The notes under the pieces were generated by a model. It was given only the letters and a program-made list of their open reading frames with translations, made no database searches and was not told the origin of the DNA. Position numbers and translations under genes: made by a program. A DNA stretch of 64,000 nt from an uncultured Cytophagales bacterium (GTDB taxonomy: Bacteria > Bacteroidota > Bacteroidia > Cytophagales > Bernardetiaceae): contig CAVXHP010000006.1 in the NCBI GenBank assembly GCA_963761725.1, forward strand, positions 253,534 through 317,533, written 5' to 3'. This document shows positions 3,691 to 52,079 of the stretch, piece after piece. The stretch's first letter is position 1; the number at the start of each line of letters is the position of its first letter.

Positions 3691-4285
3691 ATTTTTTAAA
3701 TAATATAGGTGGCAAGCACAAAATGATAGAGATAAATGATTTGTAAAATTCCGTATTGTCTTTTCAGTAATCAAGATTTTGGCTTATCAATTTAGCTTTT
3801 ATGAGACTGTGCTGTTTTCGTTTACAAAATTAGTATGCGAATTGGTTTTTATCAATGTTTATTTCGAATTCCATCAAAATTTATTTTTCAATAAAAAAAC
3901 GCAACTCATTGACTTACAGTTTATTATGGTATTTTATAAAACTTTAAAGGATAATTTAAAATGATTCTAAATAATTTTGAGTTCTTTTTTTTACTTGTTT
4001 TTATAAAAAAAGGAATTTTCAGTTCTATTTCTTCAATTCTGAAATAACTTAATTACAACCGAATTGAAGCAATTTATCAAACCTTTATTTATTGTTTTTA
4101 TCCGTTATAAAATGTGTTACTATCAGAGATAGAAAAAGTTTGAATAAATTGAAAAGATTTATGTTAAATTCGTTATTTCATTTGTTTTCAATTGTAATAC
4201 TTAAACAAAAGTAGTTTTTTTTGAGTAAAAATCATAATCTCAAACAAAAAATATTTGAACGAAATCCTTCTTGATTCAAAGGCAA

Positions 4286-4317
4286 TAAAAAAAGCATAAA
4301 GTACAACCTTATGCTTT
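4286..4317 (-). terminator. Rho-independent terminator downstream of hmgA
   Basis: On the minus strand, hairpin AGCATAAGG..CTTTATGCT is followed by a T-run (complement of the A-run at 4286-4293). Confidence 0.5.
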
Positions 4318-8687: not shown

Positions 8688-10904
8688 ATGAGAAATAGGG
8701 AATACAATTATTATAAAATATACTTAAGACTATTTTTAGTAGTTCTTATCTGCATTCCTATTTTTTTGGTAAAAGCTCAAAACAACACTTCTAAAGTAGT
8801 TCAGGGTGATTCTTTAAAGACAATATGGATCTCCTCTCAACAAGAAAAAATAATTATTTCTGGTTCTTCTCAAATTGCTGAAGACAAAACAGGTTTTTTA
8901 TCTATTCAGAAAGCCATCAAAACATTAAACTTTGAGAATTCTAGTATAGAAAAACCTAATTTTGGTTATACTTCTTCTGCCTACTGGTGTAGGTTTCAAA
9001 TTCAAAACGCAGCAAATGTTGCTCAACTTCGCTGGTTAGAAGTGCAATATCCTTCAGTAGATTCTGTTTGGCTTTATGAGGTAGATAGTGCACAGAATAT
9101 TGTTCAAGTTAGATTGGTAGGTGATAGAATGCCATTTAATGTGAGAGAAATAAAAGATGCTGATTTGGTTTTTATATTAAATATTGATGCTAGAAAGACC
9201 AGAACGTATTATATGCGATTTAAGACAGAAGGAACAATGACCTTTCCGTTGGTACTTTGGCAGCCTCAAGCATTTAGTGAACAGACAGCCAAAGACAGGT
9301 TTGGTTTTGGTATTTATTATGGAATTATTGTCGTGATGGTGTTCTATAATTTATTTATTTTCTTTTCTTTAAGAGATAGAGCCTATTTGTATTACGTACT
9401 TACCATTATTTCGATTGCACTTTTTCAGCTTGCTTTTAATGGATTGGGATTTCAGTATTTGTGGGGAGATTTTTATGCTTTTAATGATATTGCTATGCCT
9501 TTCTCAATCATTTGTTTTTCCTTTATCTCTCTGCTCTTTGCAAGGCAGTTTTTGCATCTAAGAGAACTTCTCCCTAAAATAGATAGAATAGTTTTGATTT
9601 TTGTTGCACTAATTATCATCGAACTTTTGCTAGTCTTTCTTCTTCCTTACAAAATCATGATAAAAGTAAGCTCTATTACTGGAGTAATTGCGACAAGTTT
9701 GCTTTTTTATATGGGTGTAACGAGTTATAGAAAGGGATATAAATCAGCTATCTACTTCTTGATAGCTTGGTCTTTGTTTTGGATAGGTATTTTATTAAGT
9801 ATTTTTAAAGGCTTTGGTCTTGTATCTACCAATTTTATTACGACTTATGCTATACAGATTGGTTCGGCTTTAGAAGTTATTTTATTATCTCTAGGACTTG
9901 CAGACCGTATAAACACGCTAAAAAGTCAGCTTTCTCAAAAAATGATAGCCGAAAAAAATCAGAAAATAGAAAACGAAATAAGACAACGTTATTTAATAGA
10001 AACTCAAAATCAGCAATTAGAAAAACTAGTAACCGAACGAACAGCAGATTTGGAGCAAAAAACAACAGAATTACAAAGTCAAAATCAGAAAATAACAGAC
10101 AGCTTGAAATATGCAAAGCGTATTCAGGAAGCAATTTTGCCTCCCAAAGAAGAACGAGACGGTATTTTGGGAAATCATTTTGTGTTCTTTAAGCCAAAAG
10201 ATATTGTTTCTGGAGATTTTTACTGGATTTCAGAGCATAAAGAACAACAAAAAATAGTTATTGCAGCTGTAGATTGTACAGGACATGGAGTTCCGGGAGC
10301 TTTTATGTCTATTATCGGAAATAATTTATTAAATCAGATTATTAACGAAAAACAAATATTTCATCCTTCTCTGATTTTGGAAAAATTGCATAAAGGTGTT
10401 CGTACTGTCCTAAAGCAAGATTACGATTCACATTCAAGTTCTATAAATACTTCTAGGGACGGAATGGATATTGCACTTTGTGTTATCAATAGAAAAGAAA
10501 ATACATTAGAATTTGCAGGAGCAAATCGTCCTTTATGGATTGTGAAAGATGGAAACTTTGAAGAAATAAAAGGAGATAGAAAAGCAATTGGAGGTTGGCA
10601 AAACGAAACAAAACGAGAATTTACGACACATTCGGTTGTTTTGAATGGAAATATGAATGTCTATTTAGCTTCTGATGGATATAGCGACCAATTTGGAGGA
10701 TGTGATGAAGAAGGACAAGCAAGTAAAAAATTTATGTCCAAAAACTTCAAAAAGCTATTATTAGATATGAATACCAAGAATGATAAAGTACAAAGCCTAG
10801 AAAATCAGTATTCTACTTTAGAAGATGTTTTGGAGAAATGGAAAGGTGATGAACAGCAAATTGACGATGTTTTGGTGGTTGGTTTTAGTGTTAGCAAAGA
10901 ATAG
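8688..10904 (+). CDS. 7TMR-DISM sensor fused to a PP2C/SpoIIE-type phosphatase
   Basis: N-terminal extracellular domain, seven TM helices, a coiled coil, then SGDFYW...AVDCTGHGVPGA...DGMD...SDGYSDQFGG. ATG at 8688; the track ORF starts at a GTG at 8655. Confidence 0.8.
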   Translation: MRNREYNYYKIYLRLFLVVLICIPIFLVKAQNNTSKVVQGDSLKTIWISSQQEKIIISGSSQIAEDKTGFLSIQKAIKTLNFENSSIEKPNFGYTSSAYWCRFQIQNAANVAQLRWLEVQYPSVDSVWLYEVDSAQNIVQVRLVGDRMPFNVREIKDADLVFILNIDARKTRTYYMRFKTEGTMTFPLVLWQPQAFSEQTAKDRFGFGIYYGIIVVMVFYNLFIFFSLRDRAYLYYVLTIISIALFQLAFNGLGFQYLWGDFYAFNDIAMPFSIICFSFISLLFARQFLHLRELLPKIDRIVLIFVALIIIELLLVFLLPYKIMIKVSSITGVIATSLLFYMGVTSYRKGYKSAIYFLIAWSLFWIGILLSIFKGFGLVSTNFITTYAIQIGSALEVILLSLGLADRINTLKSQLSQKMIAEKNQKIENEIRQRYLIETQNQQLEKLVTERTADLEQKTTELQSQNQKITDSLKYAKRIQEAILPPKEERDGILGNHFVFFKPKDIVSGDFYWISEHKEQQKIVIAAVDCTGHGVPGAFMSIIGNNLLNQIINEKQIFHPSLILEKLHKGVRTVLKQDYDSHSSSINTSRDGMDIALCVINRKENTLEFAGANRPLWIVKDGNFEEIKGDRKAIGGWQNETKREFTTHSVVLNGNMNVYLASDGYSDQFGGCDEEGQASKKFMSKNFKKLLLDMNTKNDKVQSLENQYSTLEDVLEKWKGDEQQIDDVLVVGFSVSKE

Positions 10905-11345: not shown

Positions 11346-12158
11346 TTAATATCTATCTATTTTACTCAGTTTCAGAATTCGTATTGCTCCTTGTACAACG
11401 AGAATAAAGACGATAGTTCCTATAATTAAGTCTGGTAAACCTGAATTCAACCAGTTTACTAAAATTCCTGCTACTAGTACTCCTAGATTGATGATTATAT
11501 CATTAGAAGTAAAAATCAAACTTGCCTTCATATGTACTTCTTCTTTACTTTTTGATTTTTGCATCAAATAAAGACAAGCTCCATTTGCAAGTAGAGCAAG
11601 AAAAGATACAATAATCATAGTTTGAAAATCAGGTAATTGCTCGTTTCCAAAAAATCGTCTCAAAATTTCTACAAAACCAATACACGCCAAAATAACTTGA
11701 GAATAACCTGCCAGTTTGGCTACTCTTTGTTTTTGAATAAGTGGTTTTCCTACTGCAAAAAGACTAATTCCATATACAAAAGCATCTGCCAACATATCCA
11801 AACTATCGGCTACTAACCCCATAGATTTCGAAATTAGTCCTGTACTTATTTCTACAACAAAGAAAACAAAATTGATAAGTAAGACCGTCCAAAGTAATTT
11901 CCTTTGATTTTTAGTTTCTACAAAAGTTTCTTTTTCCGATTTCTCTGTCTTGATTTTTTTTGTTCCCAAATTCAACTCTAGGAGAAATTTTTCTATTTGT
12001 TCTTCACTATTTTCTTCCTCGTAAAAAACAATCAGTTCCCGATTTGGAATATCAAAATCAAGATTTTTGATAGTCAAAATGCTGTCTAGTTTCATTCTTA
12101 TTAGATTTTCCTCTGAAGGACAATCCATTTTTGAGATTTTGAAAAGCGTTTTTTGCAT
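11346..12158 (-). CDS. Cation diffusion facilitator-type metal efflux protein with N-terminal MDCPSE metal-binding-like domain
   Basis: KMDCPSEENLIRMKL motif, then about six TM helices with DSLDMLADA and Asp/His-bearing helices. Confidence 0.65.
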   Translation of the reverse strand: MQKTLFKISKMDCPSEENLIRMKLDSILTIKNLDFDIPNRELIVFYEEENSEEQIEKFLLELNLGTKKIKTEKSEKETFVETKNQRKLLWTVLLINFVFFVVEISTGLISKSMGLVADSLDMLADAFVYGISLFAVGKPLIQKQRVAKLAGYSQVILACIGFVEILRRFFGNEQLPDFQTMIIVSFLALLANGACLYLMQKSKSKEEVHMKASLIFTSNDIIINLGVLVAGILVNWLNSGLPDLIIGTIVFILVVQGAIRILKLSKIDRY

Positions 12159-24810: not shown

Positions 24811-24869
24811 ATAAATTTATTAATGTTTGTGTTCTGCAAACAACATTCCCAACATTTTTCTAAAATCAC

Positions 24870-24900
24870 AATCTCATAATTATTATTTTATCAAAATAAA
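24870..24900 (+). repeat. attL core (31-bp direct repeat)
   Basis: Identical to 40069-40099. Confidence 0.8.
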
Positions 24901-25036: not shown

Positions 25037-26266
25037 ATGTCTTCTATCAAAACTATTTTGTACACACAGAAAAAACTAGCAGACGGACAGTCGCCAGTTA
25101 TGCTTTACGTTTATGAAGAAAAACCTTATCGTCTTTCACTAGGTTACAGAGCTTTTCCGAAAGACTGGGATAATAAGAAAGGGAGGTTTAATAAAAGCCA
25201 TCCTAATGCAAAAGCTAAAAACCTTGAATTACGTAAAAAGGAACTACTTGCTCACGAGCTTGTAGATGATTTTGTCAGAAAAGGAGAACGATTTGATTTC
25301 CCTACTTTCAAAAAAGTATTTAGAGGAGAAAAAGAAGAAAAACAGGAAGAGAAAAAAGAAGTTAATTTTTATGACTTTGTTGAAGAGCTAATTTCTGCTA
25401 AGAAAAAACTTGGAAAAATATCTACTTCAAGAGGTTACAAAGATGTTTACAATATCTTAAAGCGTTACCATCCAAAGCCATTAAAGTTTGAGGATATAAA
25501 CTATTCCTTTCTGAAAAAAATAGAAGCTGAACTATTTGCAATAGGGTCTAAAAAAGGAACTGTCTTTACTCGTATGGCTATACTAAGAGCTATGTATTAT
25601 GAAGGTATTAGATGCAATCACATTTCAAAAGATAAAAACCCCTTTAATAATTCCTTTAAAAAAGACGGATATAATTTTTCAAAATTTAAGTCAGATTTAA
25701 GACCTAGAGCTTTAGATAAAGAAGAGTTAGATAGGTTCAGAAATTTTGATATTAAGAAATATCCAGAGCTATCCTTAGCTTGGTATTATTTTATGTTTTC
25801 TTTCAAGTTGTTTGGGATTAATTTCACAGATATAGCAAAGCTAACAGACGATAATATTAAAGGCACACGTTTGGAGTATGTAAGACAAAAAACAGGTAAA
25901 TCCTTTAGTTTGCTACTAACAAAAGAAACACAAGATATTATAAAAAATTTTAGTTCTGAATCAGATTATCTCTTTCCAGTTCTCAAAAAAGAGAAGCATA
26001 ACACTATTGTAAAAATAAAAAACAAAATAGGTAATACTCAAAAGCAAATCAACGACGATTTGAGACAAATTGCACTAATCCAAGGCATTAGTAAATATAT
26101 CACGTTTTATACAGCTAGACATACTGCTGCAATGGCTTTAAAACGCAAGGGAATAAGCACAGATATTATTTCAGAAGCGTTAGGACACAGCGACTTAGCA
26201 GTTACACAACATTATTTGTCTAAGTTTGATAACAATGTTTTAGATAGTGCTATAATGGACTTGTAG
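25037..26266 (+). CDS. int: Tyrosine-type site-specific integrase
   Basis: C-terminal catalytic region TARHTAAMALKRKGISTDIISEALGHSDLAVTQHYL (R..H..R..Y pattern). The N-terminal arm-type/SAM-like region is typical of Bacteroidota integrases. Confidence 0.9.
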   Translation: MSSIKTILYTQKKLADGQSPVMLYVYEEKPYRLSLGYRAFPKDWDNKKGRFNKSHPNAKAKNLELRKKELLAHELVDDFVRKGERFDFPTFKKVFRGEKEEKQEEKKEVNFYDFVEELISAKKKLGKISTSRGYKDVYNILKRYHPKPLKFEDINYSFLKKIEAELFAIGSKKGTVFTRMAILRAMYYEGIRCNHISKDKNPFNNSFKKDGYNFSKFKSDLRPRALDKEELDRFRNFDIKKYPELSLAWYYFMFSFKLFGINFTDIAKLTDDNIKGTRLEYVRQKTGKSFSLLLTKETQDIIKNFSSESDYLFPVLKKEKHNTIVKIKNKIGNTQKQINDDLRQIALIQGISKYITFYTARHTAAMALKRKGISTDIISEALGHSDLAVTQHYLSKFDNNVLDSAIMDL

Positions 26267-28427: not shown

Positions 28428-29546
28428 GTGAGAAATAATACAACAAACGTTAGGAATATCTTATCTCTTTGGTTAGGTGTATTCCTTAGTAGGATGAGAC
28501 AACAAAGGAGTATTTCAGCTAATGACCTTAGTACGACAATGAAATTTTCTACTCCTTATTTACGTATGGTGGAAAATGGTCTTACCAACATAGCCCCAGC
28601 AAGAGCATTAGATGTATTGATAGGTTTTACAGACTTATTCAGTTTGAATGGTTACTTGTCATCACTTAGTAATTACTTAGTTGCTGTACAGTATCTATCA
28701 ACTTATGATGACGTAAAAAGCACAAAAGCTGCATTACAAGATTTGAAAGATGCAGATAAAGGTTTAGAAAAATTACTTTCAAATATTAATGATATACATT
28801 GGAAATATTTGGAAGAACAAGATTATGATGAACTAAAGAATAGTTTTGGAAAAAAGCCATTTGTTGAAGAGTTAGAAAAATATTTGACTAATCCATATTA
28901 TGCCCTTAATCAAGTAGATGGAATTGCTCAAAATTGGGCAGACTTATATGGTAAAACACCTTCACTATTTCAAGATTTTCTATATAGAAGATACAATTCA
29001 ATAAAAAACGACATAGAAGACTTAATCTCATACTCTCAATATTATAGCTTATCAGATTGGGAAGATAATAATGAAAAAATGATAGTAAAGTGTTTGGGGA
29101 TTACAAGAAGTATAGACCACTTACTATTAGATTCAGATAAGTTTAAGTGGAGCTTTTTGAAAAATAAAAGTTTTAAAAGTCTGAAATGTATAATATTTGA
29201 GCCGTACAATTCCCTTAAGGAAGATAAACTATTCAGTATAATTTCAGAACAATGCCAAATACCTATTGACAAAGCAAGACAACTTATTAATTTGGTTACA
29301 CTTCCCTCGGATGAGGTAGAGTATATTTGTAATCACTTACCAAGGTATACAAAAAGTTTAAATATAGATTACTGGCTTTATGAATTAAAGAACACAAATA
29401 AAATAGGTTTCTGTATTACTTTTCAAGATAGTTTACCTATAGAACTTAGTAAGCAATATTTAAACTATACTCTATATGATACTTCAGAGATTTTGAGTAA
29501 TGATGAAATACGAGAAATATTTACGATAATAAATCAATATTTATGA
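28428..29546 (+). CDS. XRE-type HTH domain protein with large uncharacterised C-terminal domain
   Basis: N-terminus LSRMRQQRSISANDLSTTMKFSTPYLRMVENGLTNIAPARALDVL resembles an HTH_3 domain. GTG start. The stop overlaps the next start (ATGA). Confidence 0.55.
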   Translation: MRNNTTNVRNILSLWLGVFLSRMRQQRSISANDLSTTMKFSTPYLRMVENGLTNIAPARALDVLIGFTDLFSLNGYLSSLSNYLVAVQYLSTYDDVKSTKAALQDLKDADKGLEKLLSNINDIHWKYLEEQDYDELKNSFGKKPFVEELEKYLTNPYYALNQVDGIAQNWADLYGKTPSLFQDFLYRRYNSIKNDIEDLISYSQYYSLSDWEDNNEKMIVKCLGITRSIDHLLLDSDKFKWSFLKNKSFKSLKCIIFEPYNSLKEDKLFSIISEQCQIPIDKARQLINLVTLPSDEVEYICNHLPRYTKSLNIDYWLYELKNTNKIGFCITFQDSLPIELSKQYLNYTLYDTSEILSNDEIREIFTIINQYL

Positions 29547-30355
29547 AAGCCAAAATATTATTAGAAACTACTGAGAGTAGTATGCATCTAATAGCTAAAG
29601 AGTTTGGAACTCCAATCTTTGTTAGAAAAAATAAAATACTTAATCTCATATCTGATGTTGTCAGAGTAAAAGCAAACTTATTATACCAAGAAATTGAACT
29701 AAATGGAAATTTCCATTGTGATAATCTTACAGTTGAGAAAGTAAAAGTGTATGGTCTACTTGGCAAAACTAGTAATAGCATAAAAACTAATCTTTTACTA
29801 ACAAAAGACATAAAATTATATACTACATTGCCAGTATTGTCAGTCGGTAATAAGGTAATTATCTCATTTTCTAATTTACAGTTTACATCTAAGAATCAAA
29901 GAGTACTAGACCTTGATGATATACCTAAAGATAAATCTAGCCTTATTAATTTCTGTAAAGTATGTAGAGATAACTGTTGTGTATTAGGTAAAGTAAATGT
30001 AACAGAAGAGGAGTATAGAAAAATTTATGAATATACAGGACGAGGAGATTACTTTTTACGCAATGAAGATGGTGTTAGGCAAATTGACAATGAAAAGGGT
30101 AAATATTGTCGTTTTTTTGATAAAGAAAAAAAACTTTGCTCAATTCAACATATCAAACCAATTGAATGTAAAAGTTACCCAGTTTATTTTGGAGAGAAAG
30201 GTTCAATAAAAAATTTTTCAATCTATACTGGATGTCCTGCAAAAAGCTTTTTGACTGAAAAATATGTTTTACAGGCAAAAAAAGAGCTAGAGAAAATACC
30301 TAAGCAAGACAGAGAAAAATATTATGAGATTACTAAAAAACTGGGACAACTATGA
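29543..30355 (+). CDS. YkgJ-family (CxxCxxxCC) Cys-cluster protein with novel N-terminal domain
   Basis: CKVCRDNCC...EEEYRKI...YCRFFDKEKKLCSIQHIKPIECKSYP. Translationally coupled on both sides. Confidence 0.6.
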   Translation: MKAKILLETTESSMHLIAKEFGTPIFVRKNKILNLISDVVRVKANLLYQEIELNGNFHCDNLTVEKVKVYGLLGKTSNSIKTNLLLTKDIKLYTTLPVLSVGNKVIISFSNLQFTSKNQRVLDLDDIPKDKSSLINFCKVCRDNCCVLGKVNVTEEEYRKIYEYTGRGDYFLRNEDGVRQIDNEKGKYCRFFDKEKKLCSIQHIKPIECKSYPVYFGEKGSIKNFSIYTGCPAKSFLTEKYVLQAKKELEKIPKQDREKYYEITKKLGQL

Positions 30356-34146: not shown

Positions 34147-34737
34147 ATGAACCTACTCCCCCACCAAATAGCCCAAAAGTTATGAGTTTCCGAAAGGACA
34201 ATCTATAATTATAGAAAAAAAATAAAAGGTAAATTCAAAGAAGAGCTAAGAAACGGCATGACTTACCTAGAGTTTGTACCATTTTTAGAGTATGCAAAAT
34301 CACTTGGCAATACCTTTCCGAAAGATTCAGAAATATTTCCGAATATTCAGAAAGAGGCACAAAATGATTCAGAAAAAGTGAAAGAAAACAAGATAGAAAA
34401 GCCAAATTGAAATTTCTGAAATATTTCGGAAAGGGTTGCAGAAGTTTCCGAAAGCAAGGAAAATACCCAAAACCGAAATAAAAAGAAAAAACAGCTAGAA
34501 AATTATAGCAATAATCTAAATGAACAAGTTCAAAAATATGCACTTGCATTTAATGAAGAAAAAGCAGAGAGAAAAGAATTACAAAAAAAATACGATACTT
34601 TAGAAACTAGATTTTTGGATAAGGTAGAAGAAGTAGCTCGTTTTAAATGAAAAACAGCTTTATTCTTTGCACTTTTGGGAGGACTTGCTTTTGCTCTTAC
34701 ACTAATTTTAGTTTACCTACTCTTTCTCAAAACCTAA
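34147..34737 (+). pseudogene. HTH DNA-binding protein with coiled coil and C-terminal TM helix; open only if 4 in-frame TGA are read as sense
   Basis: ATG at 34147 and TAA at 34735. In-frame TGA at 34183, 34408, 34417 and 34648. Reads ...HQIAQKL[TGA]VSERTIYNYRKKI...; with Gly this gives the canonical LGVSxxTIY helix-turn-helix. The C-terminus ALFFALLGGLAFALTLILVYLLFL is a TM helix. Confidence 0.6.
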
Positions 34738-34740
34738 AGA

Positions 34741-35034
34741 AAAACAACGTTGTCTTTTTTTATTTTACTATTTTATATATTTTACGCAGCTTAAAGACCA
34801 GTTCAGACCTAGTGTTTCAGACTTAAAGATGGAATAAGATAGGTCTAAATAAGAGTATTATGGGGTAAAATATGAATAAATTAGGGTTTAAGATGGAATA
34901 AGATAGGTTCTATATATGAGAAAAATGAGGTTGTTGAAAAAATAAGTATGGAAATAAAAGTTTTCCACTCATATTTTAGCTTGTATTTATGTAAATTTTC
35001 CTTAGATTTTTAGTGTTTAGCTTATCTTACTGCA
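34741..35034 (+). other. Putative iteron-type replication origin upstream of rep
   Basis: 19-bp iteron AAGATGGAATAAGATAGGT at 34826-34844 and 34890-34908, 64 bp apart, with similar flanks. AT-rich stretch at 34754-34785. The 12-mer CCAGTTCAGACC at 34798-34809 is repeated inside rep at 35728-35739. Confidence 0.6.
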
Positions 35035-36231
35035 ATGGAAAAAGCCACACAACAGTTAGTAGTAAAGCATAATTATCTGATTAATGCCAAATATGATTTT
35101 TCTCTTTTAGAAATGAAGGTATTTTTGTTAGCCGTTTCTAAAATACAGCCACAAGATAAAACAACTACCAAGTATAGAATTTATGTAAAAGATTTTAAGC
35201 AACTTGTAAACACACAATCTAAGCAGGAATATAAAAGAGTGAAAGCAACCGTTAAAAGTCTAATGAAAAAGATTGTAGAAATACCAAGAGGAGAAGATAA
35301 ATCTGTTTTGATGTGTCAATTATTTTGACCTTCTGTTTACCACGACGGAGAAGGCTATGTAGAAATTCAGTTTTATGAAGAAATAAGAGCTTATTTATTA
35401 GAACTCAAAGAGAGATTTACACAGTATAACCTTCACAATATTGTCAGAATAAAATCCTTTTCCAGTATTAGAATCTATGAATTACTCAAACAGTACGAAA
35501 CGATAGGAAAAAGAACTTTTGAACTTACAGAGCTAAAAAGTATTCTAAAGGTAGAGAAAAAGTATAAATCATACGCTGATTTTAAAAGGTATATTTTAAA
35601 GAGAGCGCAGAAAGAAGTTTGAGCCTATTGTGATATTTCATTTACCTTTAAAGAAATCAAAAAGGGTAGGAGAGTAAATAAATTAGTGTTTTACATCCAA
35701 AGGAAGGAAAAAAAAGATACTCAAAACCCAGTTCAGACCGTCGTAGAAAATGATTTAAGTGCAAAATTTTTGCTTACCCCTAGACAAGTCCGTGAAGTGC
35801 TAAAAAAATATGAGAATGATTTGCTTCATTTAGAGAAAATTCTTTGAGAAATAGCTAAGAAATATAAAACAGGAGAAATAGAAAAATTAGGAGCTTATAC
35901 TTTCAAAACTTTAATAGAAGGAAAACACGAAAAAAGTCTTTTTGATGAAGAAGTCCAAATAGAAAAAGACAAAAAGCAACAGAAGAAAGCAGCAAAGATA
36001 GAAGAACAAAAACAGAGTGAAAAAGATAAACAGAAAACACAAGAAGAAAAAGAGCAGCTAATCACTCAGATAGAAAAAGCACTTTCAGAAGATGAAAAAA
36101 ATAGTTTGGAAGAGGAATTTAAAACTCATATTTCAAAACCTCATTTGCAACAACTAAGCGAACGCCCACGAGGAAAGAAGATATTACGACAAAATTTTTT
36201 GGCTAAAAAGTTCCTATCCGAAGACGATTAA
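35035..36231 (+). pseudogene. rep: Rep_3-type plasmid replication initiator; open only if 3 in-frame TGA are read as sense
   Basis: Reads QQLVVKHNYLINAKYDFSLLEMKVFLLAVSKI ... YHDGEGYVEIQF ... IRIYELLKQYETIGKRTFELTELKSIL...YADFKRYILKRAQKEV... The single frame is open for 398 codons. In-frame TGA at 35326, 35620 and 35845; terminates with TAA at 36229. Confidence 0.75.
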
Positions 36232-36254
36232 ATTTTATTTTCAACTTTGTTTGA

Positions 36255-36689
36255 ATGGAAAAGACAAAAGCAGATTTTGATTTGCGAAACAAGCAGAAAC
36301 AAAAAATAGAAAAAAGTGATGATTCTATACTTTCAGTTCGTGAATGACAACTTTGGCGATATTATGAGTGAATGAATGTAGGTAACGAACAATCAAAATG
36401 AAGAGAATGAAATTTTAGAAGAGTAGGTTTGATTCTAAACAAAAAAGTAGGTCGTTGAATGGTTCTTATTCTACCTATCACAACAAAATACAAAGAAGAA
36501 CATAGGGTTTACAAACTTCTCATTAAGAACCCTACTCAATACGGACTTTCAAATCCAAGTGCATTTATCTTAAATCGTTTCAACGTTATTTCTACAAAAA
36601 GATTAATTAAGGAAAAATCTGATTCTGTTTTACACTCTAATTTTTTGCAACTTTTGAAGAGGAAAATAATTAGCACTATTCACGAATAA
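36255..36689 (+). pseudogene. MazF/PemK-like toxin; open only if 5 in-frame TGA are read as sense
   Basis: ATG at 36255 and TAA at 36687. In-frame TGA at 36345, 36369, 36399, 36408 and 36456. Reads SVRE[TGA]QLWRYYE[TGA]MNVGNEQSK[TGA]RE[TGA]NFRRVGLIL...LILPITTK...FNVISTKRL. It aligns without gaps to Kid/PemK ERGEIWLVSLDPTAGHEQ (recalled from memory), placing the first TGA on the conserved Gly. Confidence 0.65.
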
Positions 36690-36879
36690 AGAAATACATC
36701 ATTATTTATTTTTCTCTAATATTAAATTAGCAACTTTTTAGATTATTTGAACTTAATTACCATTTCTAAGATGGAATGTTGCATAGGGTGGATAGTTATA
36801 AGAATATTTTGTAGAAATAATGTTATATTTGATTAGAGTTAGTGTTAACAAATTTACTTACAAATAACGTGCATTATAA

Positions 36880-38241
36880 ATGATTATAGTTAGACCTAGG
36901 TTGAATGATTATCATAACATTCCATTCACACAAGAAGAAGTAGATTTTGCAATTCCTTATTTGAATGAAGATATACCTTTATATGTTGATCCATTTTTAT
37001 TGTGGAAATCTCCATCACTTCAAGATAATTCTTTGCATACAGTTATCATCAACTCATTTAATCATCTTGGTCATTTAGTTAATACAAATAAAGAAGACAA
37101 AGCTATTGATATTCTGGTACAAACAAGTGAATGTAATGAAGTTGGAATGGGTAATTCAAAAACAAGAATAGGAAAACCAATAGGACATAAAACAGCTAAA
37201 GAAATATTGAATTTATTTATAAATATTCCTCAGTTAAAAAGCTCTGGTTTCGTCCATTTTGAAAGTATTCAACTACTTGTTAATGGTATTTCAAAGGATA
37301 GAATTAGTGATTTTACTACTAGCTTTATTAAATCTTTTCTAATAGATTATACAATAGAACAATGTGAAAAATATCACATACCTATTCATTCTGTAAAAAT
37401 AGAATCACTTTATAGTTACAAAGAAAATTCTATAATTTCAGAGAACGTTTATTTACCTACGAATCCTGAAAATAACTCTCCTATTTTGTTTGTTCCAAAA
37501 AGATGGTTAAGATTCATTCCTTGGATAAATTTTGATGACTACTATAAAACCTTTCAATTAAAAGATACACAACAACAAAAAGATAGAATTCCATTATTGA
37601 ATTACAATAGACAGAATTTCGATGCTGTTATGGCTTATGTAAAAATTAAGGAAAGTGAAAGAAAATTATGTAAAAATGACTTGATATTTAAGCCTATTTC
37701 AAAGACTTCTGTTACTAGAAAGGTAAATACAATTATTAAACTAGATACAGGCAAGACAAATAATGCTGATATTGAATTTGAAAAAAATATTTGTTCTGTA
37801 CTTCCTACGACATTCTTTCCATATTTGGATTTTGCTGAAGCACAAAGTAGAACTGTAGATGGAGTACATATAAGAGATTTAATATTTTATAATAATCGTT
37901 CTCACTCTTTCCTTGAGGAAATATATGAACAGTATGAATGTAAACAGATTATTTTTGAACTAAAGAATGTTAAGGAGCTAAGTAATGAACACGTAAATCA
38001 ACTGAATAGATACTTAAAAGAGCAATTTGGTAAATTTGGTGTTTTAGTAACGAGAAGCCCTCCATCTAAGAAAGTCCTGAAAAACATAATAAATTTATGG
38101 TCAGGTCAGCGAAAATGTATTTTAGTTCTTACAGATGAAGACATGAAATTAATAGGCAGTCTTTATCAAGGAAATCAAAGACCAGCCATTGATATTTTAA
38201 AGAAAAAATATGTAGAGTTTACAAGAGATTGTCCATCCTAA
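36880..38241 (+). CDS. Uncharacterised 453-aa protein with C-terminal Mrr/PD-(D/E)xK-like nuclease signature
   Basis: C-terminus reads VDGVHIRDLIFYNN...(about 25 aa)...IIFELKNVKELSNEHVNQLNRYLKEQFGKFGVLVTRSPPS, a D...ExK pattern followed by a Q..Y and G.lvT pattern like restriction-endonuclease (Mrr_cat) domains. The N-terminal 300 aa has no recognisable family. Confidence 0.55.
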   Translation: MIIVRPRLNDYHNIPFTQEEVDFAIPYLNEDIPLYVDPFLLWKSPSLQDNSLHTVIINSFNHLGHLVNTNKEDKAIDILVQTSECNEVGMGNSKTRIGKPIGHKTAKEILNLFINIPQLKSSGFVHFESIQLLVNGISKDRISDFTTSFIKSFLIDYTIEQCEKYHIPIHSVKIESLYSYKENSIISENVYLPTNPENNSPILFVPKRWLRFIPWINFDDYYKTFQLKDTQQQKDRIPLLNYNRQNFDAVMAYVKIKESERKLCKNDLIFKPISKTSVTRKVNTIIKLDTGKTNNADIEFEKNICSVLPTTFFPYLDFAEAQSRTVDGVHIRDLIFYNNRSHSFLEEIYEQYECKQIIFELKNVKELSNEHVNQLNRYLKEQFGKFGVLVTRSPPSKKVLKNIINLWSGQRKCILVLTDEDMKLIGSLYQGNQRPAIDILKKKYVEFTRDCPS

Positions 38242-38253
38242 ATTTTAAACTAG

Positions 38254-38649
38254 ATGAATGAAGAGCAAATTAACAATTTTGAGAAATGTCAGACACAAAT
38301 TGAAGGATTATTATCTGAGATAGGTTTATTATCTAAGAAAAATCCTAATGATGCAGTAAATAAATTCAAACTTATTTTTATTAATGAATTAATTACGAAT
38401 GCTAACATAATTCTGACTTCTGACTATATGCCTTTCAAATCGTTCAATGATTTTGATGTAGATTCTGTCCCCTCTAATAGTGATGTTACTTTCATCCTAT
38501 CACAATATCTAAATTGTTTTGAGAAACTAAGAGCAGATAATATATACTGTAAGTCTGAATACATAGGAGGTAAATACCATAATAATTGGTATTGGAGAAC
38601 AGGTAATAAAAAATTAATAGCTACTTCACAACCAAACAAAATAAAATGA
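38254..38649 (+). CDS. Small hypothetical protein, paralogue A (131 aa)
   Basis: Shares P..(D/E)..NKFK...IN...(V/L)PSNSD....I.QY......R with the next ORF. Its stop overlaps the next start (ATGA). Confidence 0.6.
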   Translation: MNEEQINNFEKCQTQIEGLLSEIGLLSKKNPNDAVNKFKLIFINELITNANIILTSDYMPFKSFNDFDVDSVPSNSDVTFILSQYLNCFEKLRADNIYCKSEYIGGKYHNNWYWRTGNKKLIATSQPNKIK

Positions 38650-39062
38650 AAAATAACAAAAAAAATGAAAAAGATTTATTTCCTTCTCAAGAAGAAGTAG
38701 ATAAATTCAAAATGTTAGAAGGTTTAATTGAATCTATTACTTTAGAAATGAAGGAATTTGCTAAGAAGAAGCCTGATGAAACATTGAATAAGTTTAAGAC
38801 TAATACAATAAATAATATTCTAAAAGACTTGAAAGAAATCATGAGAAAGGAAGCTACCAATGATTATCTTGTTTTATTAGATAAAGATGTTTTACCATCT
38901 AATAGTGATGCTGTGATTGTCATAGGACAATATAACTCAGCAATATCTCAATTTAGAGCAAAATATAATGGTAAAACAGACGAATATTCGTTACAACGTT
39001 GGTTCACACAAGAAAATCCAGGAACTCATTATAAGCAAAGAGGTTTATTAGATGGGTTGTAA
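38646..39062 (+). CDS. Small hypothetical protein, paralogue B (138 aa)
   Basis: Paralogous to 38254-38649 (KKKPDETLNKFKTNTINN...LPSNSDAVIVIGQYNSAISQFRAKY). Translationally coupled to it. Confidence 0.6.
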   Translation: MKNNKKNEKDLFPSQEEVDKFKMLEGLIESITLEMKEFAKKKPDETLNKFKTNTINNILKDLKEIMRKEATNDYLVLLDKDVLPSNSDAVIVIGQYNSAISQFRAKYNGKTDEYSLQRWFTQENPGTHYKQRGLLDGL

Positions 39063-39172
39063 GTTTTATTTTAGTTAAAAATTATAAGCTACATCTATTA
39101 ATTTAGTGGTAGCTTTTTTTATATAAGTAACCATATTGTTAGCAAATAAAAAACATTTAATTTATTATAATT

Positions 39173-39235
39173 GAATCTCCTTCTGTTTTACACTCTAATT
39201 TTTTGCAACTTCTCAAAAGGAAAAATTTCATTTAA
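39173..39235 (+). pseudogene. Orphan 3'-end fragment of a second MazF-like toxin allele
   Basis: Encodes ESPSVLHSNFLQLLKRKNFI*, compared with KSDSVLHSNFLQLLKRKIISTIHE* at 36615-36689. A 31-bp identical core occurs at 36623-36653 and 39181-39211. It is followed by synonymous differences (TTG AAG versus CTC AAA). Confidence 0.75.
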
Positions 39236-39242
39236 AAAAATC

Positions 39243-39280
39243 GCCTACTCACACTAAGGAGAGTAGGAAGCTGGAGACTC
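39243..39280. repeat. 38-bp hairpin-containing direct repeat, copy A
   Basis: GCCTACTCACACTAAGGAGAGTAGGA-agc-TGGAGACTC, preceded by an A-run. CCTACTC/GAGTAGG forms a hairpin. On the minus strand this is a hairpin followed by a T-run, which is terminator-like. Confidence 0.7.
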
Positions 39281-39442
39281 AAATTAAGGTCTCTATGGCA
39301 TTTGCTTTTAAGCTAATGCCTATGAAAATAGCTTATTGATTTTTAAAGAAAGATCAAGTTTTTATTATTTCTACTTATTTACAACTTAATGCTCTAATTG
39401 TCGTACTCATATAGAAGATTTTTTTAATTAAACCTTACTATT

Positions 39443-39837: not shown

Positions 39838-39987
39838 CATTTTATAGGCATTGAAAGTATTAATGATTTATTTCATTTTTCAATTCAGAAAAGAAGTTGA
39901 ATTTATTTTGTCTTTTGGTTTTTTGCCTTTCGGTTCGCTCGTGGAAAAAGAAGAAAAGGAATAGCGAAATGTTGTTTAAAAAAAATT

Positions 39988-40025
39988 GCCTACTCACACT
40001 AAGGAGAGTAGGATGTTGGAGACTC
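39988..40025. repeat. 38-bp hairpin-containing direct repeat, copy B
   Basis: GCCTACTCACACTAAGGAGAGTAGGA-tgt-TGGAGACTC, preceded by an A-run. It matches 39243-39280 at 35 of 38 positions. Confidence 0.7.
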
Positions 40026-40068
40026 TGCCTTTGTTAGTATTCCCACCAACGATATTTTCAATATTTCT

Positions 40069-40099
40069 AATCTCATAATTATTATTTTATCAAAATAAA
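40069..40099 (+). repeat. attR core (31-bp direct repeat)
   Basis: Identical to 24870-24900. It lies 57 bp upstream of the sucD ATG. Confidence 0.8.
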
Positions 40100-48452: not shown

Positions 48453-49842
48453 ATGAAAAAACCTTCTGTTCCACAGGGAATGCGTGATTTTTCACCCAAT
48501 CAAATGCTCAAACGTCAATGGCTTTTTGATTCTATAAAAAAGGTATTTGTAAAATATGGTTTTCTACCTTTAGAAACTCCTACAATGGAAAATCTAAATT
48601 CTCTAACAGGAAAATATGGCGATGAAGGCGACCAGCTTCTTTTTAGAGTGCTTAATTCAGGCGATTTTTTGAAAGATGTACAAAAAAAAGAGGGTCAAAA
48701 AAAAGTAGAAGAATTAGATTATAAAGAAATTACGACAAAGGTAAGTAAGCGAGGTTTACGATATGATTTGACTGTTCCTTTTGCTCGTTATGTAGTTCAG
48801 CACCAAAGCGAAATTACGTTTCCTTTTCGCAGATTTCAAATTCAACCTGTTTGGCGTGCCGACCGTCCACAAAAAGGACGTTACCGTGAATTCTATCAAT
48901 GTGATGCTGATGTTGTGGGTTCAGATTCTTTAATTAATGAAGCCGAATTATTACAATTAGCCGATGAGGTTTTTGAGAAATTGAATCTAAAAGTTACTAT
49001 CAAACTCAATAGTAGAAAAATATTGCAAGGACTTTCAGAAGTAGTCGGTTTTCCAGAAAAAATGACTGATATTACTGTTGCCATTGATAAGTTAGATAAA
49101 ATCGGCTGGGAAGGCGTTTCGAAAAGAACTCACAGAAAGAGAACTTTCAGAAGAGGCTATTTCTAAAATAAGTGAATTTATAGATTTCTTGACCAATAAA
49201 AATACAAGTTTCAATCAAGAGAAATTAGATTACTTAAAATCTTTTTTTAGTGGAAATCAAGTAGGAGAAGCAGGAATTATAGAACTAGAACAAGTACAAC
49301 AGTTTTTAGAGCATATTCCGTTTGTCAATAATTTAGAAATTGACCCAACTCTTGCAAGAGGTTTAGGATATTACACAGGCTGTATTTATGAAATAAAAGC
49401 AGACGAAGCCCAAATGGGTAGTATTGGTGGTGGAGGTCGTTATGATGACCTTACAGGAATTTTTGGTTTAAAAGGATATTCTGGAGTAGGAATTTCATTT
49501 GGAATAGAACGAATTTATGATGTTTTGGAAGACTTAGATTTATTTCCAAAAGAAATTTCAGAATCTACCAAAATTATATTTTTAGCCTTTGATGAATCTG
49601 CACGAATTTGGAGTTTGCCACTTGTAAGAAGGCTTAGAGACAGAAATATTGCTACCGAAGTCTATACAGAAAACAAGAATATCAAAAAACAATTTGATTA
49701 TGCCAATAAAAGAAATATTCCTTTTTGTGTAATTATAGGAGATAATGAAATGAAAACAGGAAAATTGGCAGTCAAAAATATGGTTGAAGGTTCGCAAGAA
49801 GTAATGTCTATTGATGAACTAATTGAAAAATTTGCTTTATGA
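48453..49842 (+). CDS. hisS: Histidine--tRNA ligase, apparent +1 frameshift in an A-run (probable sequence error)
   Basis: Class II motifs are present: [43 protein letters not shown] and GGGRYD. The track splits the gene at 49166/49189. Deleting one A of the A4 run at 49122-49125 gives a continuous ...[31 protein letters not shown]... Confidence 0.9.
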
Positions 49843-50072: not shown

Positions 50073-51521
50073 TTACCTTATCCTCAAGCGTCTTCCCAGT
50101 CTCAAACTCGCTCGTGTACTAATATTATTAAGTTTACAAATTGAAGCAATCGTTACTCCATATTGGCGACTAATTTTCCAAAGAGAATCTCCACTTTTGA
50201 TTTTGTGATAAATTACTCTTCTTACAGTATGAACTTCTTCAGAGTCGTCATCTCCATCATCCTCGTGTGTATGTGTACTATTTACTCTTGCACCCAAATG
50301 CTTGAAGTTGGCAGCCGTAAGCTCAAAATCTTTTAGCTTTATTTCGTTTTTTTCAAAATCAAAAATAGTTGCTGGGTCTATCGAATTGCCTTCATAACGC
50401 ATCTCAAAATGCAAATGAGGTCCCGTACTCCTTCCAGTACTTCCACCCTTTCCAATCATCTGACCTGCTTTTACGTAATCACCTACCTCTACATCGGTTG
50501 CACTAAGATGTCCATACACCGTTTCAAGTCCGTTATTATGTCGTATTACAATATGATTTCCAAAACCTCTACCGTATTTTTTTACTCTAATTATTCCATC
50601 AAAAACAGCATAAATAGGGTCACCTGTATCCAAATCTAAATCGGTTCCGTGATGCCAGCGATAACGACGATACCCAAAATTTGAGTTTATTCTGTTACTC
50701 GCCATAGGTGGCGACCAATATTGGCTTTTTGCTGAATCATAGAGAGCAATCTGAACGGTGTCTCTAAATTTTGAAGCATCAATTCCATACGGGTTTACGG
50801 CATCTGAACTCCAAACTTTATAATACTGACGCATTGTAATCCAAACACAATCAATTGCAATTTCTTCTGAAATCAAAACGATATTGCTCATCTTTACATT
50901 ATCGTAATTACTTGTATCTTCTCTAAATAAACTTTTGCGAGTATTCATACTAATAGCAAGCGTATCTAAAAAAAGTGAGTATCCCCAGCTTCCACTAAGT
51001 GTACTAAGGCGTAACATAGTTGTATCAGAAAGATTTAAGAGAGTAGCATTTGCAGGACGAAAATTTTCTTCCTCATAACTATCTCCACCAATAGAAGGAG
51101 CATTTTTATTAAATACAGCAGAGTTTTCAAAGGATTTTGAAGTAACTACTCCTAGTGAATCTTTTGATGAATCGCTTTTAACTTCTCCATTTTCAGAAAC
51201 TGACCTAGATAAATCAGAATCCATATTACTTTTAGAAATGCTAAAAGCATCTATTGAATCTGTCTTCGAAATGGCTAGAGTTAATCTTAAAGAATCTGTT
51301 TTCTTGTCTTTTGTATCTTCCTTTATATCTTCTCTTGGAGCTACTTTTTCAATAGCTGCATTTTTATCTGTTGTAGCAGGGAGAATTAAAAAATTTGGAA
51401 TTATAATAGTTTTAAAATCACTTTGACTGTTACTTTTGTCTTGCAGAGTATTTTGTGCTGTAACGTTATTCTTTTGAGCTAAAAAAGTAAATAAAATGAA
51501 AAAGAAACTGATAAATCTCAT
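50073..51521 (-). CDS. M23-family peptidoglycan metalloendopeptidase with C-terminal LysM domain
   Basis: HHGTDLD ... GSTGRSTGPHLHFE (M23 motifs). C-terminal YHKIKSGDSLWKISRQYGVTIASICKLNNI (LysM). Signal peptide starts at M30 (ATG at 51521). Confidence 0.85.
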   Translation of the reverse strand: MRFISFFFILFTFLAQKNNVTAQNTLQDKSNSQSDFKTIIIPNFLILPATTDKNAAIEKVAPREDIKEDTKDKKTDSLRLTLAISKTDSIDAFSISKSNMDSDLSRSVSENGEVKSDSSKDSLGVVTSKSFENSAVFNKNAPSIGGDSYEEENFRPANATLLNLSDTTMLRLSTLSGSWGYSLFLDTLAISMNTRKSLFREDTSNYDNVKMSNIVLISEEIAIDCVWITMRQYYKVWSSDAVNPYGIDASKFRDTVQIALYDSAKSQYWSPPMASNRINSNFGYRRYRWHHGTDLDLDTGDPIYAVFDGIIRVKKYGRGFGNHIVIRHNNGLETVYGHLSATDVEVGDYVKAGQMIGKGGSTGRSTGPHLHFEMRYEGNSIDPATIFDFEKNEIKLKDFELTAANFKHLGARVNSTHTHEDDGDDDSEEVHTVRRVIYHKIKSGDSLWKISRQYGVTIASICKLNNISTRASLRLGRRLRIR

Positions 51522-52079
51522 CGCTTTTGTGTAATACAAAGTAGGATAAAATATGTTTTTTGAGTAATTATTCGAGTCCATTTGAAAGATAATAAAGATA
51601 TAAGGCATAAAAACAAACCAATGTTTGTTTGATATGAGCTATTAAACTACTTATTTTGTAAATTTATCTTTAAATAAATAAGTCCTTGGGAATATTTTTT
51701 GAGCAACTATTTTGAGCAACTATAAGTCTAACCCCAAATACTACTAGTTTGCAGTATGTATTTTGTTTGAAGGGTTCAATATTTTTTATAAAAGAAACTA
51801 ATTTTAGTTTTCTTTTAAATGAAGGTGCAATTTACAACTATTTTATAAACACTACCAAATATTATATTTGATTTGGCTTTTCATTTGTACTTATAATTTA
51901 AACAATAGGATAAAACTAATATAAATTCTGTAATTTCATTTATTTTTGTCTTTAAAAGAGATTGTACTAAACAAAATTAATTTTTCTTTGTCCTATAAGT
52001 GAGTAAGAGTAGTCAGTTTTGCTCAAAAATATATATTTTTGTATTGGTAGAAAATGTGTTTTTAAATAAAGAGAAGCGT

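Follow-up and report, generated by a model that had tools for sequence, protein, structure and literature searches.

A candidate plasmid replicon module in a predicted Absconditabacteria (SR1)-type genetic code within a chromosomal island of Bernardetia-like bacteria

How can three consecutive genes stay intact in a chromosome that reads TGA as a stop codon when each of them carries several in-frame TGA codons? This question is raised by a block at 34147–36689 on the + strand of a 64-kb stretch of DNA, hereafter the window, which belongs to a Bernardetia-like member of the Cytophagales, hereafter the host. The block consists of three consecutive frames of 197, 399, and 145 codons, whose products are a helix-turn-helix (HTH) protein with a predicted transmembrane helix (HTH-TM), a Rep_3-like replication initiator (Rep), and a PemK/MazF-like protein (hereafter the toxin). 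A previous reading made before any database search, the sequence-only reading, had reported that these frames were interrupted by TGA only, and this was confirmed: all 12 TGA codons (4 + 3 + 5) were found at the positions listed there, each gene keeps a single frame that ends with TAA, and neither an in-frame TAA or TAG nor a frameshift occurs in any of them. As the remaining five frames of the same 3 kb contain 24–73 TAA/TAG codons apiece, lengths of 197, 399, and 145 codons free of TAA and TAG greatly exceed what chance would allow. Standard annotation reduces the locus to fragments of 50, 97, and 76 aa, which is also a warning for annotation in practice. The explanation favoured in this study is that the block is a replicon in the code of Absconditabacteria (SR1), carried in a Bernardetia island and selected where that code is read, and as a whole this statement is considered rather more probable than its opposite. 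That an SR1-type-coded replicon module lies inside a Bernardetia island, and is neither decay nor an artefact, is held with high confidence, and on the mechanism of its maintenance our judgement is evenly divided.

The host translates TGA as stop and CGA as Arg. Outside the block, the window is closely filled with ordinary open reading frames (ORFs), and 13 of the 53 end in TGA, including the flanking genes at 28428–29546, 29543–30355, and 38254–38649, for which the sequence-only reading had correctly described TGA as a genuine stop. CGA is used in host genes at 4.2 per 1000 codons. No further TGA-interrupted genes were found in the otherwise ORF-free DNA of the window. A search with ARAGORN revealed no tRNA gene in the 64-kb window or in eleven related loci (L001–L004, L006, L008–L011, L039, and L040), and no RNA family of Rfam was matched in the window. 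Since TGA is stop and CGA is Arg in the host, none of the three block proteins can be made there, and the module is translationally silent in the chromosome.

Judging from its genes and intergenic DNA, the block appears to be a minimal plasmid replicon that combines an iteron origin with genes for a membrane-anchored HTH protein, a Rep_3 initiator, and a PemK/MazF-like protein. With X placed at the TGA codons, Rep matched the Pfam families Rep3_N (PF01051; E 1.7e-39, aa 9–152, 135.9 bits against a curated cut-off of 22.4) and Rep3_C (PF21205; E 4.3e-16, aa 164–221, 59.3 bits against a cut-off of 21.1), and these matches span two TGA sites uninterrupted. Both winged-helix domains (WH1 and WH2) exceed the Pfam thresholds, which places the protein in the Rep_3 family. 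The toxin gave a weak match of 24–26 bits to PemK_toxin (PF02452; cut-off 23.1); with TGA read as Gly, 26.1 bits were obtained across aa 46–138 only, which lies above the gathering score and makes it a weak member of the family. Its identity to the annotated PemK/MazF toxins of Helicobacter plasmids was 29% across 92% of the length. The HTH matches of the first gene were borderline or below threshold. The three assignments made in the sequence-only reading were thus recovered, strongly for Rep, weakly for the toxin, and at best marginally for the HTH protein. No cognate antitoxin was recognisable upstream of the toxin gene, which begins 23 nt after the end of rep, and no conserved antitoxin partner was found in any context of the toxin family, where the upstream genes of the homologues are mutually unrelated or encode a toxin paralogue. 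A scan for sigma-70 promoters and terminators was uninformative.

The putative origin of replication occupies the 297-nt intergenic region between the HTH and rep genes. In its first ~105 nt, a T-run comes after a short inverted repeat, and an AT-rich tract and CAGACC/CAGACT repeats are also present. Two iterons of 21–22 nt (34823–34844 and 34887–34908) are located 64 nt apart and 130–210 nt upstream of rep. These two matches were observed when none was expected by chance; the copy number is below that of typical origins. Separately, the motif CCAGTTCAGACC was noticed by eye at 34799–34813, in the conserved part of the origin, and again at 35729–35745 within the Rep coding sequence.

Alignments with homologues were used to determine which residue TGA represents in the block, and Gly is well supported. 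In the case of the toxin, homologues were found via an exhaustive search with the TGA-free C-terminal 76 aa, and the five TGA columns read G/G/G, TGA/G/G, G/G/G, G/S/A, and G/H/K in P0152, the standard-code protein P0153, and a PemK/MazF toxin of a Helicobacter plasmid, respectively. When the toxin was aligned to P0153, Gly was the best of the 20 residues at the TGA sites, with a score of 308 compared with 281 for Trp; substitution in the toxin alone against Pfam was weakly discriminating (26.1 bits for Gly, 28.4 for Gln, and 21.3 for Trp). At the first TGA of the HTH gene, Gly was top-scoring in every HTH family, for example in HTH_23 with 23.7 bits vs 15.1 bits for Trp. The three Rep columns were composed of S18/A5/V2, K11/E4/S3/A3/others, and A11/Q4/E3/others in 25 standard-code homologues, and Trp was absent from them. 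Accordingly, the Gly placements suggested by the sequence-only reading stood for the HTH turn and the toxin sites, and its placement of KEV[TGA]AY in Rep on an Asn-type column fell, as this column is variable (K/E/S/A) and is neither a Gly nor an Asn column.

Codons at orthologous positions were also compared among relatives, in which TGA exchanges with GGA or GGC. The closest Rep relative, P0001, has TGA opposite a GGA of the window (EKL[TGA]AYSY vs EKLGAYTF), and the first Rep TGA column is common to both. On the three metagenome contigs that carry P0001 (L001–L003), the HTH homologue has TGA at three shared columns and a further TGA opposite a GGC of the window. On L001, TGA also stands at the glycine position of the inhibitory motif of Fic (AIE[TGA]NTL vs AIEGNTL in FICD) and at the small residue preceding Y.YY of MerR. 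In-frame TGA thus lies mostly at Gly or small-residue columns while all three block genes stop at TAA, as in code 25, and the position at such columns together with the exchange between TGA and GGN supports Gly and rejects Trp. A meaning of Trp (table 4), selenocysteine, or leaky read-through in place of Gly is accordingly given hardly any probability. The gene callers did render the TGA codons of the relatives as W, and a Trp meaning would restore a normal Trp content in genes where TGG is nearly absent; however, no standard-code homologue has Trp or another aromatic residue at any TGA column, Gly outscores Trp in the HTH families, PemK, DUF4153, and TMEM43, and the missing Trp is supplied by CGA, as described below. 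The view of the sequence-only reading that Trp fits these positions worse was therefore upheld. With regard to selenocysteine, 0 of the 12 sites are on Cys columns, and the window matched no RNA family.

A second codon of the block appears to be reassigned as well, since CGA very probably represents Trp according to the columns in which it is found. TGG occurs only once in 738 sense codons of the block, i.e., 1.4 per 1000 vs 13.5 per 1000 in host genes, and three of the five CGA codons sit at conserved Trp columns. The CGA at 36187 in Rep (KKIL[CGA]QNF) corresponds to Trp in 9/9 homologues with a residue there and to TGG in P0001. In the toxin, the CGA at 36357 corresponds to Trp in all four of P0152, P0153, the Helicobacter toxin, and a paralogue on L039, and the CGA at 36285 in three of the same four. 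A conserved pair of Trp residues is written TGG-TGG in standard-code P0153, CGA-TGG in P0152, and TGG-CGA in the window.

The same signature was found on L039, the 135 kb contig that carries P0152. In its genes, TGA, TGG, and CGA account for 2.7%, 0.5%, and 1.2% of the codons, and the stops are all TAA or TAG. To test the code, three L039 genes were translated in several ways and the products were scored against Pfam families. For TMEM43, 194.5 bits were obtained with TGA as Gly and CGA as Arg, 221.4 with Gly and Trp, 183.9 with Trp and Arg, and 208.4 with Trp for both; the corresponding values for DUF4153 were 40.8, 44.9, 29.8, and 36.5 bits. For NUDIX, scored with TGA as Gly, 64.9 bits with CGA as Arg increased to 71.6 with CGA as Trp. 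UGA=Gly combined with CGA=Trp thus gave the top score in all three families. This combination, with CGA/CGG as Trp, is a published prediction for Absconditabacteria alone (Shulgina & Eddy 2021, PMC8629427), and genetic code 25 is described for Absconditabacteria (SR1) and Gracilibacteria (Campbell 2013 and Rinke 2013, as cited in PMC8629427). Because CGA falls at Trp columns, with TGG depleted ~10-fold, the block is predicted to be written in the Absconditabacteria (SR1)-type code rather than in plain code 25. The suggestion of the sequence-only reading that the block is a replicon module from a TGA=Gly organism or its plasmids was thereby supported and could be sharpened to an SR1-type source. 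The Trp columns of CGA go beyond that reading, as do two points described below, the purifying selection on the block at a single locus of three genomes and its place in an integrase-island backbone.

The relatives of the block genes were found in both codes. P0001, the closest relative of Rep, shares 53% identity with it and is TGA-recoded, whereas the next best match shares ~40%. L001–L003 keep the HTH-Rep gene order; their called stops are all TAA/TAG, and in-frame TGA is present in all genes but one cut-off gene, with a maximum of 13 in 268 codons. For these L001-type replicons, CGA=Trp was considered and dropped, as their CGA codons lie in basic contexts. The nearest standard-code relatives of Rep (35–40% identity) are plasmid Reps of Cytophagales and Saprospirales, which fits a long ecological association; on the Cytophagales standard-code plasmids with the nearest Rep (35–37%), it is paired with ParA/ParB, not with the HTH gene or toxin of the block. 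The closest full-length homologue of the toxin is P0152, which stands in the SR1-type code of L039, and the other homologues are those named above. A close-relative scan of the GTDB genomes returned two further Bernardetia-like copies and distant standard-code Reps only, with none in Candidate Phyla Radiation (CPR) genomes. The viral contigs yielded no relative, neither the Rep nor the HTH profile matched anything in the JGI metagenomes scanned, and in the plasmid collection an HTH homologue was absent and DNA matches were confined to short stretches of rep genes. A word-indexed protein search using the toxin with X at TGA returned nothing, and a PDB sequence search with the toxin returned spurious OmpH matches only.

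Some other features of these related contigs were noted. On L039, two tandem PemK-like paralogues (9337–9774 and 10001–10429) are located near a giant ORF of >4,000 aa, and no named close relative was found for the TMEM43 protein. On L001, and likewise on L002, a Fic-MerR fusion gene lies in two overlapping frames (3766–4293 and 4266–4808 on L001), which is either a frameshift or two genes, and the first gene of L001 (1–546) contains no TGA.

The proteins of the 739 kb contig that holds the window cluster at no less than 90% with those of Bernardetia spp. (Cytophagales). Copies of the block are present in the complete 5.9 Mb chromosome of Bernardetia sp. OM2101 (CP170094.1; loci L008 and L009) with 92.4% nucleotide identity, and in a 1.87 Mb contig of the Cytophagales metagenome-assembled genome (MAG) MFD03250.bin.2.105 (hereafter the MFD MAG; locus L010) with 93.7%. 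In all three genomes, the block occupies the same slot between pdf and sucD with Bernardetia genes on either side. In addition, both block junctions were reproduced in a second assembly (L004; ERZ25039505 contig_18618), which is 99.9% identical to the window and probably samples the same population. L004 has no difference from the window inside the block, and was thus unusable for the selection test.

The block copies differ by 6–8%, and selection was mainly evaluated on 2,190 coding nt compared between the window and OM2101. The 137 differences are distributed as 29, 15, and 93 over the three codon positions without any indel, and all 12 TGA codons, the 5 CGA codons, and the TGG are conserved. 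The ratio of nonsynonymous to synonymous substitution rates (dN/dS) was 0.098 for the block, with 0.15 for the HTH gene, 0.05–0.06 for rep, and 0.11–0.12 for the toxin gene, and was 0.10 for the parts of the genes beyond their first TGA. Neutral simulations (5000) were performed in which the observed substitution spectrum was placed randomly; the 93 third-position changes compare with a simulated maximum of 61, and no new TAA or TAG was seen against ~5.1 expected (P=0.004). On the three branches, nonsynonymous to synonymous changes were 11:39, 21:46, and 13:25, compared with a neutral expectation of ~4:1. The dS of the block (0.15–0.31) and its dN/dS match those of the neighbouring standard-code integrase, orf104, sucD, and pdf. 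The first ~105 nt of the origin are invariant between the window and OM2101 although dS is ~0.27, and the paired iterons change in concert; unlike the coding DNA, the 297-nt origin region and the flanks do contain indels. The only inactivating changes were seen in the MFD MAG, where the integrase is internally deleted by ~1 kb (L010 5109–5893) and where, in the block copy, the TGA at 36369 of the toxin gene has become TAA and the HTH gene carries two indels of 1 nt (at window 34215 and 34428). This integrase-deleted copy has begun to decay. For the block as a whole, the low dN/dS, the absence of gained stops, the invariant origin, and the same junctions elsewhere show neither decay nor a chimera, and ordinary decay was excluded by a dN/dS of ~0.1 with zero TAA/TAG gains, as the sequence-only reading had anticipated when it called decay unlikely.

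Accordingly, two simple accounts of the locus lose most of their weight. In one of them, the block is a dead relic of a single ancient code-25 transfer, vertically inherited, untranslated, and functionless anywhere. A host unable to translate the block, a single locus in three genomes, and the nonsense change and frameshifts of the MFD copy would all be expected from such a relic, but a dN/dS of ~0.1 on every branch and past the first TGA, zero indels in the coding nt next to an origin and flanks that have them, and the stops that were not gained would not. Moreover, for a block that is neither translated nor under selection in Bernardetia, a dN of 0.025 would cap the residence at ~4–7% of the host divergence (dS 0.36–0.64), and a dead relic is thus judged very improbable. 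The probability of the other account, an assembly or binning artefact that fused a contaminant contig of SR1 or Gracilibacteria with one of Bacteroidota, is next to nil. Identical junctions in the second assembly speak against it, as does the occurrence of the block within both a 1.87 Mb MAG contig and a 5.9 Mb chromosome, flanked by Bernardetia genes and with differing local cargo, even though the window appears metagenome-assembled and contamination of assemblies with Absconditabacteria is documented (PMC8629427).

An alternative that does account for selection is a recoded mobile element of Bernardetia itself, gated by suppression, for which a helper phage or plasmid would provide a UGA-reading tRNA, so that the element acts as a satellite or an abortive-infection trigger. 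In its favour are purifying selection acting at one fixed position of three genomes with the standard code, the defence-island setting, a toxin without antitoxin, and the mosaic of a code-neutral integrase and a recoded module, which resembles the one reported for recoded phages (bioRxiv 10.1101/2021.08.26.457843). However, the residue is Gly, whereas recoded phages use Trp or Gln, and CGA=Trp would mistranslate the Arg codons of the host at the frequency given above. The closest toxin homologues are located in a chromosome that is dual-coded throughout, and neither the viral contigs nor the tRNA search of the window and the eleven loci returned anything that such an element would use or be related to. 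A suppressor tRNA encoded elsewhere had been offered as an alternative in the sequence-only reading; it is weakened by these results, as CGA=Trp needs reassignment of a sense codon, and the suppression-gated element is regarded as unlikely.

The favoured explanation of an SR1-coded replicon in a Bernardetia island combines silence in one cell with selection in another. Since the host cannot read the module and purifying selection is evident, selection must act where the code is read. In the Bernardetia chromosome, with TGA as stop and CGA as Arg, the module would remain silent, and selection on the frames and the origin would have been exerted, until very recently, in a cell reading an SR1-type code. 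An SR1-type bacterium may be such a cell, and it could plausibly live on Bernardetia as an epibiont or prey on it. The Absconditabacteria lineage is regarded as episymbiotic or predatory. Two routes are conceivable: the chromosomal copies could be repeatedly refreshed from a plasmid pool in SR1-type cells, or the replicon of the island could itself be used once its DNA enters an SR1-type cell. The proposed partner cell, the direction in which DNA moves, and the path that it takes are inferred from these considerations. Episymbiosis of CPR bacteria and contacts across codes have been reported (PMC8406219, PMC10746230). A tentative and somewhat doubtful reading goes further and regards the block as a two-host element whose code is a host switch, silent in Bernardetia and readable in an SR1-type epibiont or predator feeding on it, where it would replicate as a plasmid or poison the attacker through a toxin without an antitoxin. 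If this were true, the chromosome would be a reservoir for an SR1 plasmid, or the island would be a 'Trojan horse' of defence directed against a CPR parasite rather than a phage.

Several points weigh against the favoured explanation. None of the SR1-type contigs yielded a near-identical copy, the best identity outside Bernardetia-like genomes being 53% for Rep and ~40% for the toxin, and L039 was placed in its lineage from its code alone. Two of the five CGA codons of the block lie in basic, unalignable linkers where Arg fits equally, and the L001-type relatives look like plain code 25. The shared left border across unrelated flanks, together with one common backbone, is easier to reconcile with long residence in Bernardetia than with repeated import, and long residence leaves the source of selection unexplained. 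The physical association between Bernardetia and an SR1-type bacterium is a proposal of this study, and the HTH indels of the MFD copy could be long-read sequencing errors.

Compared with known systems, the block is similar to Absconditabacteria in that TGA falls on Gly columns and CGA on Trp columns, TGG is depleted, the stops are TAA/TAG, and the G+C content is low; unlike in Absconditabacteria genomes, this code is confined to a 2.5 kb module within standard-code Bacteroidota chromosomes. Similar to iteron-regulated Rep_3 plasmids, it has Rep3_N and Rep3_C domains, direct repeats with an AT-rich tract upstream of rep, and a linked stability-type gene. However, it differs from typical Rep_3 replicons in having two iterons only, in being integrated in a chromosome, in carrying HTH-TM and a solitary PemK-like gene instead of ParA/ParB, and in being untranslatable by its carrier. 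Integrative defence islands and hotspots consist of a conserved backbone with swappable cargo. The present island conforms to this with an integrase at one end, terminal direct repeats, and core genes around variable CBASS/PDC-M36 slots, and departs from it in that its core replication genes are written in a foreign genetic code. Recoded phages and prophages in standard-code hosts are reported to combine, likewise, one alternative-code module with a code-neutral integrase (bioRxiv 10.1101/2021.08.26.457843); unlike them, the block is not a phage, uses Gly rather than Trp or Gln, has a second (sense) reassignment, and carries no suppressor tRNA. Phages in contact with CPR bacteria of code 25 as well as with standard-code bacteria have been inferred (Liu et al. 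2023, PMC10746230), and there is evidence for DNA passing the code barrier between CPR and Bacteroidetes. These dual-host phages mostly avoid TGA, whereas the block is TGA-rich.

Code 25, the predicted CGA/CGG=Trp, SR1 contamination, recoded phages in standard-code hosts, and spacer evidence for code-25 phages meeting Bacteroidetes are already known. A full-text literature search returned no selected and conserved SR1-coded plasmid module that structures an integrative island of a standard-code genus with a sequenced isolate. A code difference is usually seen as a firewall to gene flow or as a reason to dismiss sequences as contamination or pseudogenes. Through the block, a link of an uncultivated CPR lineage to a candidate host genus becomes testable, OM2101 being apparently a cultured isolate of Bernardetia, and the block gives independent gene-level support for the predicted reassignment of CGA to Trp. 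It also raises the possibility that mobile elements or defence islands use code differences to limit expression to one of two partner cells.

The coordinates of the block and island features are summarised in Table 1. The two copies of the 45-nt terminal repeat are 87% identical, with identical 3' 30 nt, and 15,199 nt apart, and cross-matches between the loci agree. The integrase has a cluster mate in OM2101 that is named tyrosine-type recombinase, with a dN/dS of 0.06 between the two. From left to right, the island backbone consists of the integrase, orf104 (104 aa), cargo slot 1, the HTH-origin-Rep-toxin block, cargo slot 2, and the right repeat. The G+C content of the island is 26–29% compared with 31–36% in its surroundings.

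Table 1. Coordinates of the replicon block, its recoded codons, and the surrounding island in the 64-kb window
Feature	Coordinates	Strand	Remarks
Candidate attL, left 45-nt direct repeat	24856–24900		Repeat D3
Tyrosine integrase, Bacteroidota type	25037–26266	+	Standard code, ends TAG; Arm-DNA-bind_5, Phage_int_SAM_5, Phage_integrase (Pfam)
Gene 1, HTH-TM (predicted)	34147–34737	+	196 aa; N-terminal helix-turn-helix, coiled-coil middle, C-terminal transmembrane helix; ends TAA
Gene 1 recoded codons	TGA 34183, 34408, 34417, 34648; CGA 34474	+	4 TGA, 1 CGA
Putative origin of replication	34738–35034		297-nt intergenic; iterons and invariant ~105 nt
Gene 2, Rep_3-family replication initiator	35035–36231	+	398 aa; ends TAA; Pfam Rep3_N, Rep3_C
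Gene 2 recoded codons	TGA 35326, 35620, 35845; CGA 36169, 36187	+	3 TGA, 2 CGA
Gene 3, PemK/MazF-like	36255–36689	+	144 aa; ends TAA; weak PemK_toxin match
Gene 3 recoded codons	TGA 36345, 36369, 36399, 36408, 36456; CGA 36285, 36357; sole block TGG 36354	+	5 TGA, 2 CGA
PDC-M36 cargo cassette	36667–39224	+	2.56 kb, standard code, one gene ends TGA; inserted in toxin 3' end
PDC-M36A	36880–38241	+	PADLOC E 1e-220
PDC-M36B paralogue	38254–38649	+	PADLOC E 3e-50
PDC-M36B paralogue	38646–39062	+	PADLOC E 1e-36
Candidate attR, right 45-nt direct repeat	40055–40099		Repeat D3; directly upstream of sucD, which follows in all three genomes

The cargo differs between the genomes. Slot 1 of the window has an ABC transporter operon among its contents, and PDC-M36, a candidate defence system, lies downstream of the block. 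In OM2101, thymidylate synthase, AAA_28, and Ham1-like genes (nucleotide metabolism) lie upstream of the block, and a CBASS-like operon (L008 18663–20933) with a Cap15 effector and an SMODS/DncV-like nucleotidyltransferase lies downstream. Homology among the three genomes begins exactly at the ATG of the HTH gene, the upstream flanks being mutually unrelated, and the cargo breakpoints are located at the ends of core genes. The insertion of the PDC-M36 cassette is marked by a 51-nt direct repeat (36616–36666 and 39174–39224), which is the duplicated 3' end of the toxin gene, and the final 8 codons of this gene were swapped by the insertion. The cassette is missing in OM2101 and the MFD MAG, where the toxin continues into the homologue of 39174–39350.

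A 66-nt repeat containing the palindrome GCCTACTCACACTAAGGAGAGTAGG was observed at 39215–39280 and 39960–40025 in the window, at 11659 and 14341 in L010, and at 11660 in L011. It is confined to the island and brackets cargo slot 2, which holds CBASS in OM2101, and it may serve in cassette recombination or as a terminator. Outside the island, the window contains look-alikes of an NgoBV-type restriction endonuclease and a DNA methylase at 48453–49166 and 50073–51608 (- strand), which resemble a restriction-modification pair by analogy with L009 of OM2101.

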